Source: an uncultured delta proteobacterium (GTDB taxonomy: Bacteria; Myxococcota_A; Polyangia; Fen-1088). Taken from it: a stretch of 64,000 nucleotides of DNA. Every line of letters starts with the position of its first letter. The first letter of the stretch is position 1. The stretch is from contig CAWCMR010000025.1 of the NCBI GenBank assembly GCA_963796685.1, forward strand, positions 1,536,001 through 1,600,000, written 5' to 3'. The position numbers and the translations under genes are program-made. The notes under the pieces were generated by a model. It had not been told where the DNA came from and made no database searches. It saw nothing but the letters and a program-made list of their open reading frames with translations. This document shows positions 3,987 through 9,574 of the stretch, in pieces.

Positions 3987-4230
3987 ATGGGAACCCTCAA
4001 AGGGTTCCCAAACCCTCCCGCGCTCTGGCGGAGCCAGGCGAGGGCGAGGGCGAAGCCCGAGGTGGAGGTAGGGTGGGCAGGCGGGTCCCGAGGCCCGGCT
4101 CCGCCAACGCGGAAGATGGGAACTCCCCCTGAAACCACCTCTGAAACACCTCGCCCCGCGCAGCGGGGAGAGGTCGCCGAGCGCAGCGAGGCGGGTGAGG
4201 GGTAGTCACCTTTCACGCCAGAAGGATCCG
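3987..4230. repeat. Composite REP/MITE-like element leading into the tandem array
   Basis: Hairpin GGGAACCCT...AGGGTTCCC and later blocks are shared with 48610-48863. Confidence 0.7.
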
Positions 4231-4778
4231 GTTCTCGCTCCTCACCTTGTGGTGCCCCTCACCCTGTCCCTCTCCCCGGCTGACGCCGGGGCGAGGGGAC
4301 CTGCCTGTTGGATCCCTCCACGAGGACGCGATCTTGTGGAACCGCCCGAACGCCGTCTCGTGCCGAGCGCAGCGAGGCGGGTGAGGGGTAGTCACCTTTC
4401 ACGCCAGAAGGATCCGGTTCTCGCTCCTCACCTTGTGGTGCCCCTCACCCTGTCCCTCTCCCCGGCTGACGCCGGGGCGAGGGGACCTGCCTGTTGGATC
4501 CCTCCACGAGGACGCGATCTTGTGGAACCGCCCGAACGCCGTCTCGTGCCGAGCGCAGCGAGGCGGGTGAGGGGTAGTCACCTTTCACGCCAGAAGGATC
4601 CGGTTCTCGCTCCTCACCTTGTGGTGCCCCTCACCCTGTCCCTCTCCCCGGCTGACGCCGGGGCGAGGGGACCTGCCTGTTGGATTCCTCCACGAGGACG
4701 CGATCTTGTGGAACCGCCCGAACGCCGTCTCGTGCCGAGCGCAGCGAGGCGGGTGAGCATCTGTGTTCCTAGTCAAGG

Positions 4779-5729
4779 TCAAATCTCCGTGGTTTGCCAG
4801 CGCGAGTTAGAGCGCAACATGGCGTTGAGGATGGTGAGCAGCTTGTGCATACAGGCGACGATGGCGACCTTCTTGAGCTTTCCTGCGGCGACTAGCCGAG
4901 CGTGGAATCTGGCGATGACTGGGTTGAAGCGTATGGCAGCTAGGGTGGCCATGTAGAGGACGTTGCGGACTTCGGTGCGGCCGCCCCAGATGATGCGGCG
5001 GCCGCGCAGGGTGCCGCTGTCCCGGTTGAGTGGAGCAACACCGATGAGGGCTGCGATCTGCTTGCGGTTGAGGGTTCCAGTCTCAGGGGCATGGGACAGG
5101 ATGGTGCGAGAGAGGACGGGGCCAGCTCCTGGAACGCTTTGGATGATGTCGTCCTTGGCTTTCCAGACCGAGGAATTGCCGATGGCCGTGTCGATGTCGT
5201 TGTCCACCTCGTCGAGCTGCTTTTCGAGGTAGGAGATGGTCCTGCGGATGGCCCTCTGCACGCGCTTGGAGGGAGGGTCAGCGCTGAGACGGTTTTTCTC
5301 GGCAGTGATCATGTCGACCACCTGCCTGCGCCTGGCGAGAAGGGCGGCAAGCTCCTGGGTCTCTGCGTCGACAGGCGGGCGGACGGGTGGCCGTATTCGT
5401 TCGGCGAAAAGAGCGATCATGGCGGCGTCCAGGGCATCGGTCTTCGCGAGACAGCCGTTGGCCTTGGCGAAGTCGCGAACGCGTCTGGGGTTGACGACGA
5501 CAGCGGGCAGGTTGGCAGCGAGGAGCGCCGCAAGCACGCGTCGTTCGAGTCCACCGGTGGCCTCAAGAACGATGAGGGTGACGTTCAGGGCGGCCAACTC
5601 TTTGCAAAGAGCGCGCACCGTGTTGTCTTGATTGGGGGTGGACCAGGCTCTTTTGGCCGGCAAGACATGGACGTCGAGCGTGGCCTTGGAGACGTCGATA
5701 CCTACGAATGTGTCAGCTGTTGGTGTCAC
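4779..5729 (-). CDS. IS110 DEDD transposase/bridge recombinase
   Basis: GTG at 5729 after GAAAGGAG; [35 protein letters not shown] motifs. Confidence 0.95.
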
Positions 5730-7396: not shown

Positions 7397-9471
7397 GTGC
7401 GTCCGGCATGGACGCAGAACAAGAGGTGAAGCCATGAAATAGCCAAGTCCTCTGGGGACCCTGACGGAGGGAACCTCCCACCTACGAGACAAGGGCGCCG
7501 GTCTGGAGCACCAGGCCAGACGGGCCGCAAGGCCCGTCTCCCGCGAGGAGGTGTCTGGTGGAAGTCTATGGTGCAGCGCCGAACCGAACGAAAGTGAAGC
7601 GCCGTAAGGCGTGGGTACCGCTGGGCAAGCTGGCCTTCGGCGGCAAAGCCCAATATTCGTCGGGCGGCCCGCGTAGTGGCGACGGAGTCGGTGCGAAGTT
7701 CTGCGTTCTTACCCGGAGAGACCTCTTGGCCTCCGCGGCGAGGAATCGCAAGCGGAATTCATCGAGAACGAAAGGACGAGATGAAGAAGGGACAAGAGGA
7801 GTCGGATGGTCGCGTAATACCGGAAGGCCGGCGAAAGCCGGTTCCAACCGCCAGAAGGCGGGGAGGGAAGGCGACCACGGCCAGCAAAGAGGCAAGGCAG
7901 CTCGGACTGTTTCCCGAGACAGCCGACAACCCGAAAGGGACCACCGCCCAAGCGGATCCGGGCCAACCCGTGCCTGCGCGGAGCGAGGTGCCGAAGTCGG
8001 GGAACGAGGAAGAGAGGACCTTGCCGCCCATGACGATGGAGGAGGTAGCGAGCGAAGGAAACCTGAAAAGAGCGTTCGAGCAAGTGAAGGCCAACAAAGG
8101 CGCACCTGGACCGGACCGGCAAAGCGTGGGGGAAGTGGCGAAGGGGTTGGGGACGCTGATACCGGCGCTGTCGCGGTCGCTGCTCGACGGGACATACCGA
8201 GTCGGAGACATCCGGCGGGTATGGATACCGAAGAGCGGTGGCGGGCGGCGGGGCCTTGGCATACCGAACGTGGTGGACCGCGTGGTTCAGCAGGCCGTGC
8301 ACCAAGTGCTCGGTCCGCATTATGAGCCGACGTTTCACCCGTCGAGCCACGGTTTCCGACCTGGGCGCAGCTGTCACACGGCCATCGCCGAGGCCAAGCA
8401 GTATCTGGAGGAAGGGTACGAATGGGTGGTCGACCTCGACCTGGAAAAGTTCTTTGACTGGGTCCACTGGCAACGGCTGGTGGCGCGGCTAGAACAGAGG
8501 GTTAAGGACCGGCGGCTCATCGAGCTCATCTGGCAGATGCTGAAAGCCAAGGTGGTGATGCCCGACGGAGTGGTGGTGGCGACGGAAGAAGGAGTGCCAC
8601 AAGGTGGTCCGCTTTCGCCGTTACTGAGCAATATCGTGCTGGACGAGCTCGACCGCGAGCTTGCCCAACGCGGTCACCGCTTCGTGCGCTATGCGGACGA
8701 CTGCAACATCTACGTCGGAAGCGAGCGCTCGGGTCAGCGTGTGATGGCCAGCGTGGTCAAGTTCATCGAAGGCCGGATGCGGTTGAAGGTGAACTTGGCC
8801 AAGAGCGCGGTGGCCCGACCGGAAGAGCGGCACTTTCTGGGATTCCGGCTGCGGCGCGAGCCGCTGACGGGGGAAGCGGAGGTGCTGCTGTCGGCGCGGA
8901 GCAAAAGCCGCATTGACGAGAAGGTCCGAGAGCTGACGCCGCGAAACCTTGGGCAGTCCCTCAAGGGCTGCATCAAACAGGTCAACGCGTATTTGCTCGG
9001 ATGGATCGGCTTCTTCTGTATCTGCACGGCCGCGGAAGAGCGGACGCTGCAGGCACTCGACGCACACATCAGGCGGCGGCTGCGAGCGATAGTGCTACGG
9101 CACTGGAAACGCAGACGCTTCATCGCACGACACCTCATCAGCCTGGGGGTGAGACCGAAAACCGCGTGGCAAGGGGTCTACAAGGGGCATCGCTCCTGGT
9201 GGGCGCTGAGCCACACATCGGTAGTTGAACGAGGACTGCGCAACGCATATTTTGCCGAACGCGGGCTTGTCAGCCTGGCCGAGCGGTGGAAGGACCATCA
9301 CGCCTTGGACTTCATGGACCCGGCCCTGGAGCCAGGATAGCTGCGGGCAGCAATGCCGGCGCTGGACTACGGGTCGCTCCCGAACGCCAGCGTCCCGAAG
9401 AGCCGGATGTGAGGCCCACAAGTCCGGTTCTGTGAGAGCTGGGGGAGGGTAACCTCCCCTGGCTACTCGAC
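7397..9471 (+). mobile_element. Group IIC intron, complete
   Basis: 5' GTGCGTCCGGCATGGACGCA; DV-DVI at 9399-9471 ending CTCGAC; inserted just after hairpin GCCCAGC-TTT-GCTGGGC; the empty site is seen at 5953/5954. Confidence 0.93.
7781..9340 (+). CDS. ltrA: Group II intron reverse transcriptase/maturase without En domain (start may be 8030)
   Basis: NKGAPGPD, IPKSGGGRRGLGIP, GFRPGRS, GVPQGGPLSPLL, RYADDCNIYV, FLGF; class C-like sequence. Confidence 0.93.
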   Translation: MKKGQEESDGRVIPEGRRKPVPTARRRGGKATTASKEARQLGLFPETADNPKGTTAQADPGQPVPARSEVPKSGNEEERTLPPMTMEEVASEGNLKRAFEQVKANKGAPGPDRQSVGEVAKGLGTLIPALSRSLLDGTYRVGDIRRVWIPKSGGGRRGLGIPNVVDRVVQQAVHQVLGPHYEPTFHPSSHGFRPGRSCHTAIAEAKQYLEEGYEWVVDLDLEKFFDWVHWQRLVARLEQRVKDRRLIELIWQMLKAKVVMPDGVVVATEEGVPQGGPLSPLLSNIVLDELDRELAQRGHRFVRYADDCNIYVGSERSGQRVMASVVKFIEGRMRLKVNLAKSAVARPEERHFLGFRLRREPLTGEAEVLLSARSKSRIDEKVRELTPRNLGQSLKGCIKQVNAYLLGWIGFFCICTAAEERTLQALDAHIRRRLRAIVLRHWKRRRFIARHLISLGVRPKTAWQGVYKGHRSWWALSHTSVVERGLRNAYFAERGLVSLAERWKDHHALDFMDPALEPG

Positions 9472-9574
9472 CGAGGGGGGACCGGGGGACTGCGAGCGAG
9501 AGCGAGCCAGTCCCCCGTAAGATACAAGGGGTTCCCGTCAACCGCCGGGGGAACCTGCGCTAGACTGACATCCG

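Follow-up and report, generated by a model that had tools for sequence, protein, structure and literature searches.

Several systems close to the locus reported here have been described. In the insertion sequence (IS) IS621, the bridge RNA contacts both DNA strands, the bottom one by pairing of its left guides and the top one by pairing of its right guides (PMC11208160, PMC11208158). In Pseudomonas putida, 7 of 7 copies of ISPpu9 and ISPpu10 lie in repetitive extragenic palindromic (REP) elements, with a preference for clustered REPs, or bacterial interspersed mosaic elements (BIMEs) (PMC12288879, bioRxiv 2026.03.19.712850, PMC1525189), and a group II intron of the same genome is REP-associated in 2 of 9 cases (PMC1525189). 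Group IIC introns follow terminator motifs or inverted repeats of other kinds (PMC1702495); another account finds class C introns without biased flanking features, and introns of other classes hiding in mobile elements (PMC7306698). Here we describe a locus of an uncultured member of the Polyangia in which a tandem array of REP-like repeats, an IS110-family element and a group IIC intron are nested in one intergenic gap. The window, that is, the whole stretch of 64,000 nt that was analysed, covers positions 1536001-1600000 of contig C25 of the source genome (G000). Coordinates given without a contig name count from the first letter of this window.

The gap lies between an rlmH-like gene and a gene with a DnaJ domain, measures 5.5 kb and is filled by repeats and mobile elements. 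The nested three-tier structure of array, IS110 and intron put forward in a preliminary description was confirmed by repeat finding and by domain, Rfam and BLAST searches. We consider it probable (about 0.8) that the gap was colonised stepwise by selfish DNA sharing a substrate of REP-like hairpin repeats. A composite of dispersed hairpin repeats would first have multiplied into some 10 tandem units. An earlier variant of the IS would have inserted at GGGTG-AG-GGGG at the far end of this array and later decayed to a solo left end of about 140 bp. The same IS would then have entered unit 4, guided by its bridge RNA, in a recent burst that left copies of 100% identity. In a separate recent burst, the intron would have retrohomed 4 nt after the hairpin of the solo end, on the strand opposite to the IS. 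These last two steps are site-specific and mutually independent; the order of events as a whole is what we infer. In relatives, the same gap is about 30-50 bp and empty (G001, G004 and G012), about 190 bp with a REP-like piece (G010), or occupied by a small REP array (G002), and the 5.5-kb insert is therefore best seen as a recent local build-up. The component parts are known kinds of selfish DNA, and the three-tier structure is an illustration rather than a new principle. Within a single locus, hairpin-rich repeats are seen to receive two unrelated site-specific mobile elements, a retroelement and an RNA-guided DNA recombinase element. A further gain is a bridge-RNA IS110 element from an uncultured Polyangia member, with all four guides readable from natural covariation.

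As the preliminary description had stated, an IS110 element sits in unit 4 of the array. It is 1251 bp long and runs from 4758 to 6008 on the minus strand, its flanks rebuild the array unit, and the core dinucleotide AG (CT on the IS sense strand) stands on both sides of it (4756-4757 and 6009-6010). The ends, CATCTG... and ...GATACA, carry no inverted repeats. Seven full copies with 100% identity occur in G000: six are uninterrupted and identical across all 1251 bp, and the seventh, at C11:74653-77978, contains the intron, inserted at the base that is also used in the solo end of the window. G002 holds seven full copies and G001 one, and the IS is 99% identical there. The coding sequence for the bridge recombinase (transposase), 316 aa long, lies at 4779-5729 on the minus strand. 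Its protein matches DEDD_Tnp_IS110 (PF01548, 2.7e-23) and Transposase_20 (PF02371, 9.6e-17) in Pfam, NF033542 ('IS110 family RNA-guided transposase') in NCBIfam with 212.7 bits at a cut-off of 140, and ISCro4 (2.9e-31) and IS621 (1.2e-26) in PDB with whole-length alignment. The D, E, D..D (within KTDxxDA) and S-G residues align with D11, E60, D102, D105 and S241-G242 of IS621 (catalytic residue names from PMC11208158; the PDB chain numbering is shifted by 2). Judging by these domains, by the core and target and by the two-loop RNA described below, the element is assigned to the bridge-RNA group of the IS110 family.

Mapping of the flanks of all full copies of this IS gave a single motif. All 15 full copies (seven in G000, seven in G002 and one in G001) are inserted at GGGTG-AG-GGGG, each being flanked by GGGTGAG and, at its opposite end, by AGGGG. 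Read along the sense strand of the IS, this site is GCCC-CT-CACCC and has a CT core, as in IS621. GGGTGAGGGGC would be the expected insertion target of the recombinase acting with its left end. This left end measures 279 nt, and left-end positions are counted below from the left terminus of the IS. The core of the predicted bridge RNA occupies 5763-5893 on the minus strand, and comprises a target-binding loop (left-end 116-181) and a donor-binding loop (195-244), as defined by covariation and by a covariance model, R1. Four guides can be read in it, all on the minus strand. The left target guide GAUGCCC-CU (5869-5877, left-end 132-140) repeats the left half of the target and the core in the same orientation, and the right target guide GGGUG-AG (5845-5851, left-end 158-164) is the reverse complement of the core plus CACCC. 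The left donor guide ACAGAUG (5802-5808, left-end 201-207) is identical to the final 7 nt of the IS right end. The core part of the right donor guide, CAAG (5772-5775, left-end 234-237), pairs with the core plus TG, the first 2 nt of the left end.

Comparison with single-copy relatives of 65-69% identity from G009, G015 and G010 shows that all four guides change in step with the flanks and ends across the four elements. The left target, which the left target guide repeats, is GCCC in G000, TCGGC in G009, and AACC in both G015 and G010. The right target and its guide are CACCC and GGGUG in G000, CTCCC and GGGAG in G009 and G015, and CCCGC and GCGGG in G010. On the donor side, the left donor is ACAGATG in G000, G009 and G015 and ACAGCTT (guide ACAGCUU) in G010, and the right donor and guide are CTTG and CAAG in the first three and CTGG and CCAG in G010. 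Over the four helices drawn for the bridge RNA, 98.1% of the cells in the four-element alignment are paired and 4 pairs show double changes, compared with 28-43% paired in controls with slid partners. Model R1, built from these four elements, matches 72 of 80 IS110-family loci from many phyla, mostly directly upstream of the transposase gene. The resulting alignment has 95.0% of its cells paired and double changes in 22 of 26 pairs (slid controls, 22-50%); it was itself fitted to the structure of R1. Together, the uniform site and the covarying guides support insertion of the IS by way of its bridge RNA at a motif in the repeat unit, as the preliminary description had supposed when it spoke of an RNA-guided IS aimed at the repeat.

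A candidate promoter was read by eye across the joined ends, with TTGACT as the -35 hexamer, a spacing of 17 nt and TATCTT as the -10 hexamer. The TTGACT near the right end is kept in three relatives and TATCTT lies at the left end, so that a junction promoter would be rebuilt in the circle; a scan of the linear locus found no promoter-like sites. Antisense to the bridge-RNA loops, at 5750-5901 on the plus strand, lies a sub-threshold match to Rfam sX15, a Xanthomonas small RNA (29.4 bits, gathering threshold 55). The Xanthomonas IS110 loci L116, L124 and L129 match the bridge-RNA model, and sX15 may be IS110-related.

The likeness to IS621 and ISCro4 (PMC11208160, PMC11208158) covers a DEDD plus serine recombinase, a CT core common to target and donor, and a left-end RNA whose target- and donor-binding loops follow the order left guide, stem-loop, right guide. 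In both cases the left guides have the sequence of the top strand, to which the right guides are complementary. Likewise, the -35 and -10 hexamers, here putative, come from opposite ends and meet at the junction, and the target lies in a repeated palindromic element. There are also differences. The protein described here is distant (E values of 1e-26 to 3e-31), and its left end of 279 nt has about 115 nt before the loops, including a two-hairpin module of 85 nt. The right target guide pairs over 7 nt here and over 4 in IS621, and in this copy the core C is absent from the left donor guide.

The array that received the IS was resolved by Tandem Repeats Finder into two parts with a period of 186: units 1 to 3.1 at 4176-4757 (3.1 copies, 99% matches), and the remainder of unit 4 to unit 10 at 6009-7311 (7.0 copies, 96%). 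When the IS was excised in silico by a script, a single array of 10.1 copies of a 186-bp unit with 97% matches resulted, in agreement with the roughly 10-fold amplification of a dispersed repeat that had been noted before. The final unit is degenerate, with 84.8% identity to the consensus unit. The array unit is composed of dispersed hairpin repeats, and a cluster of such REP-like repeats, with 180 BLAST rows elsewhere in the genome, fills 3987-4175 between the RlmH-like gene and the array. The repeats are extragenic, form hairpins and are present in tens to more than 100 copies, features for which the earlier label 'REP' is a loose one. REPs and BIMEs in the strict sense are tied to a Y1 transposase (REP-associated tyrosine transposase, RAYT). 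A search for Y1/RAYT (PF01797) gave no match in the 88.6%-complete genome, with matches in 6 of 14 control genomes. We therefore rejected the strict identity and use the name 'REP-like' throughout. Rfam Antizyme_FSE matches in the array (27.8-29.9 bits, gathering threshold 40) were rejected as sub-threshold echoes of one unit, and a 384-aa open frame through the array (6060-7214, plus strand) is taken to be a by-product of the repeat.

The 10-mer GGGTGAGGGG occurs 183 times in the genome, as against 54 occurrences expected from base composition. Free motifs of the form GGGTGAGGGG[CT] number 167 and fall almost entirely within a few hairpin-repeat families. Each array unit offers two target motifs, one per strand, and the motif occupied in the array is the one of its unit's two that matches the left target guide more weakly. 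Among the full IS copies of G000, five of seven interrupt tandem arrays (periods 102, 186, 372, 251 and 180). Arrays of this sort account for 0.63% of the genome sequence and for 45 of the 167 free motifs; the comparison of 5/7 with 45/167 gives a nominal binomial P of 0.018 for sites that are not independent, so that a preference of the IS for arrays is only suggested. These counts and the two motifs per unit are consistent with the earlier proposal that arrays multiply IS targets, and the BIME preference reported for ISPpu9 and ISPpu10 agrees with it (PMC12288879). ISPpu9 and ISPpu10, together with MITEPpu9, resemble the present system in having an IS110 element in REPs, a short IS module that also occurs alone and in tandem, and a REP-associated intron. 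The hosts here differ in being tandem arrays of composite units of 100-370 bp, and the intron differs in lying inside an IS end. With five of seven copies in arrays and solo ends at guide DNA (see below), the element could bear on off-targeting and self-targeting by editing recombinases.

The complete intron, 2075 bp long and bounded by GTGCG...AC, extends from 7397 to 9471 on the plus strand. Domains D1-D4 lie at 7537-7707, the open reading frame at 7676-9340 with the conserved reverse transcriptase (RT) region starting at 8030, and domains D5-D6 at 9398-9471. Rfam matches are group-II-D1D4-3 (RF02001, which we take to be the class C model; 79.7 bits, gathering threshold 32) and Intron_gpII (RF00029; 46.6 bits, gathering threshold 40). 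The encoded protein has RVT_1 and GIIM domains only and no endonuclease domain in Pfam, and reaches 368.9 bits with NCBIfam TIGR04416. In PDB it matches the GsI-IIC RT over its full length at 3.9e-109 and 7uim, likewise a IIC protein, at 3.7e-87, as compared with 1.7e-37 for LtrA and 1e-22 for a IIB RT; on the strength of this protein match the intron is assigned to class IIC. Excising it restores the IS left end base for base. Eleven full copies and one 3' remnant are present in the genome, and the ten other full copies differ from that in the window at 0-3 positions (substitutions and 1-nt insertions). The long open frame is kept in 7 of the 11 copies. Single-nucleotide insertions near intron nt 974-976, in a homopolymer, occur in 4 of the 11 and may be either long-read homopolymer errors or real frameshifts. 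Further downstream in the window (13900-14238, plus strand) we noticed the degenerate 3' remnant of a related group II intron, with the end of an RT/maturase frame and domains V-VI among its parts. It is 87.6% identical to the 3' end of the intron over 145 nt and ends in CTACTCGAC like the full copies.

The site of the intron follows a simple rule. In the window it lies 4 nt after the hairpin GCCCAGC-TTT-GCTGGGC, at GAAG|CGAGG. The preliminary description had placed it in a hairpin of the IS end and in the RNA leader of the IS110; the completeness of the intron, its position within the IS left end and the junction GAAG|CGAGG stand, with the corrections that it follows the hairpin instead of interrupting it and that it is on the strand opposite to the transposase and leader. 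A hairpin of 6-9 bp ends 0-10 nt before the insertion point in all 10 readable 5' flanks, and the eleventh copy starts at a contig end. These 10 sites fall in six families: IS left ends (2 sites), a repeat of the GCCGGGC type (2), adjacent units of a 79-bp array (2), the REP-like element targeted by the IS, about 30 bp from the IS site (2), and two single sites. A BLAST search of the IS end through the genome and its relatives, which the preliminary description had suggested, gave 12 left ends in G000 that contain the intron site (7 full and 5 solo); two of them are occupied, both at the same base. The GsI-IIC-like protein, the ten flanks and the repeated use of one base of the IS end accord with landing of a IIC intron after stem-loops. 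A terminator-type homing site was considered and rejected, as no hairpin with a T run lies at the intron site and terminator-like sites number 2 overall, as against 3.7 expected. Likeness to B.h.I1 (PMC1702495) and GsI-IIC (PDB 6ar1) extends to an RT plus maturase without endonuclease, a position just downstream of inverted repeats, short exon recognition and many near-identical copies; the hairpins differ, being REP-like repeats and an IS end here rather than T-run terminators. At C8:379444-383672, two full intron copies stand 79 bp apart in neighbouring units of the 79-bp tandem array. At C25:481403-486469, two minus-strand copies 370 bp apart, followed some 490 bp away by 61 bp of IS left end, look like a second small hot spot.

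The second IS110 end after the array, also mentioned in the preliminary description, is a solo left end of about 140 bp on the minus strand, divided by the intron. Its inner part (7315-7396) is 96% identical to IS positions of about 1114-1196 and lies at a degenerate copy of the IS target. Its terminal part (9472-9526) is 100% identical to IS positions 1197-1251 and is followed by the core AG at 9527-9528. It represents an older IS variant, sharing GAATCTTG with mini-elements of G001 and G002. Solo left ends of about 100-143 bp are found in G000 at C25:1109421, C25:234099, C8:212939 and C1:32343 besides the window, together with two shorter pieces. The junctions at C8 and C25:1109421 are exactly GCCC-CT-CACCC on the IS sense strand, and those at C25:234099, in the window copy and at G002 L033-L036 are 2-3 nt off at the core. 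At nine places in two genomes, and in the degenerate window copy, the solo ends stop about 3 nt or less from the DNA that encodes the left target guide. The mini-elements that have both ends (L031 in G002 and L032 in G001) consist of 41-55 bp of right end joined to 125-140 bp of left end, and that of G001 stands just downstream of the orthologue of the DnaJ-domain gene. L029 (C14:1-1100) and L030 (C21:13000-15000) of G002 each show a full IS with a solo 140-bp left end directly behind it, as insertion of the IS into a target rebuilt at a solo-end junction would produce; their flank is shared, and they may represent a single locus that the assembly contains twice.

Copying the left half of the target and the core, the DNA of the left target guide may serve as an internal pseudo-target. 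It is thus conceivable, although we find it rather doubtful, that every IS copy has a built-in pseudo-target and that recombination there yields the solo ends of about 140 bp. If so, solo left ends would be natural footprints of self-targeting by a bridge recombinase and would seed new IS targets and intron landing pads. The solo ends may have arisen by aberrant excision, by insertion of the IS into its own guide-coding DNA, or from a single ancient deletion that spread in the manner of MITEPpu9. The solo module here covers the left end as far as the left target guide; MITEPpu9 differs in being a downstream small-RNA gene with its own end boxes. On whether IS110 elements are cut out or copied out, current papers disagree (bioRxiv 2026.08.31.748434, bioRxiv 2025.10.25.684509, PMC13626964).

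The terminal 85 nt or so of the IS left end form a module of two hairpins (5923-6006, minus strand), in which the intron site of the copy in unit 4 is unoccupied (5953|5954). Both hairpins keep their pairing through double changes in G015 and G010. In related genera of the family the module is dispersed alone (13 rows in G012 and 16 in G015), the flanks of the stand-alone copies are unrelated to the IS target, and the related IS of G009 lacks the module. The extra matches to the related element of G015 are these same 16 rows of the 85-nt module only; those in G010 are flanking target repeats and not IS end. Since the module disperses by itself, the landing pad of the intron within the IS is in effect a REP-like module. 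The intron uses the IS end because it carries this hairpin module, just as it uses the hairpins of other repeats. At L018 in G012 (C25:80033-80749), the left-end hairpin module forms 64-bp head-to-tail units, and no full IS was found in G012.

The preliminary description went on to propose that each element uses the previous one as its landing pad, so that the intron could hitch-hike on IS110 copies. The landing-pad logic holds for both steps, in that the 15 IS copies share one motif and the 10 readable introns follow hairpins; a strict chain does not, as two introns lie directly in the IS-targeted repeat and the IS-end hairpin belongs to a self-dispersed module. We accordingly regard a dependent three-tier chain, with the intron spreading by riding transposing IS110 copies, as unlikely. 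It is true that an IS::intron composite exists, namely the full copy at C11:74653-77978 with the intron at the same base as in the solo end of the window. However, this is the only one of the seven full copies in G000 that carries the intron, and none of the eight full copies of the same IS in G001 and G002 does. A search of 30 other genomes did not find the intron, the best match elsewhere reaching 82% over 197 nt. Of the two occupied ends, that at C11 matches the IS at 100% and that in the window at 96%, and 2 bases distinguish their introns, so that two independent homings into the same site explain them best. Nine of the 11 intron copies lie outside IS ends, among them the two in the IS-targeted repeat. 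Moreover, the intron is antisense to the IS at left-end 55|56, between the putative junction promoter on one side and the guide loops (118-244) and the transposase gene on the other. Being antisense, it cannot be removed from the IS transcript by splicing, and in this position it is therefore more likely to cripple the IS than to travel with it; an intron in a full IS probably disables that copy in cis. The RmInt1 intron in ISRm2011-2, whose splicing is reportedly discussed (going by the title of PMC4238363) as controlling the spread of the host element, is a similar case of a group II intron with an insertion sequence as its natural home. RmInt1 differs in not being a IIC intron, and the antisense orientation here means that splicing cannot restore the IS transcript. 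Bridge RNA supplied in trans could still mobilise a crippled copy, since the RNA of IS621 can act in trans (PMC11208160).

Two further explanations concern the parts and their assembly. One holds that the piece of about 140 bp is an independent repeat or mini-element and that the real IS is a 1.1-kb body always inserting beside it. In G000 and G002 there are indeed several places with the piece by itself, other genera have its first 85 nt as a dispersed repeat, and the junction of piece and flank is a perfect IS target, at which exactly a full IS stands in G002. Yet the target-binding loop straddles the supposed boundary: the 5' strand of its stem and the left guide lie in the piece, and the 3' strand and the right guide in the body. 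This stem is kept with double changes in the four elements, including the G009 element without the 85-nt module. As the loop both spans the boundary and covaries across it, and as one array unit is interrupted by exactly 1251 bp and the piece is present in 15 of 15 full copies, we rejected a separate element as very improbable. The other holds that the locus is an artefact of the long-read metagenome bin, produced by collapsed or expanded repeats or by a chimeric join. Six identical 1.25-kb copies and an intron-split seventh, eleven 2-kb copies and a 10-unit array are indeed hard to assemble, and the homopolymer indels in 4 of 11 intron copies and the contamination of 6.48% point the same way. 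But both insertions are exact, removal of the IS restoring a continuous unit and removal of the intron the left end, and the target motif is the same as at the 14 other full copies. The array units also bear point differences of their own, and the contig, 2.1 Mb long, spans three full copies of the IS and five of the intron. We thus give an artefact very little credence.

The stepwise colonisation that we favour has to contend with several points that weigh against it. The occupied array site fits the left target guide at only 3+2 positions, and 9 better motifs, on the opposite strand of the array units, are all unoccupied. The junction promoter is known by eye only. A native promoter inside the left end, as reported for ISPpu9 (PMC12288879), or bridge RNA acting in trans, as noted above for IS621, could keep an intron-bearing copy active or move it. 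Five of the 10 intron flanks rank at the 17th-26th percentile of random 45-mers; as hairpin free energy is a weak signal in this genome of 65% G+C, the hairpin evidence rests on visible stems. Finally, the assembly is of metagenome type, 88.6% complete with 6.48% contamination, and the number of array units and small details may contain assembly error.

The host genes on either side of the insert are neighbours elsewhere too, RlmH-like orthologues adjoining the DnaJ-domain gene in relatives. Upstream, an RlmH-like SPOUT methyltransferase is encoded at 3254-3985 on the plus strand (Pfam SPOUT_MTase, 2.6e-36); these are the limits of a mechanical open reading frame, and the true start is probably near 3563. 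Downstream, the DnaJ-domain gene occupies 9575-10099 on the plus strand, with its domain at the C-terminal end (Pfam DnaJ, 9.7e-10).

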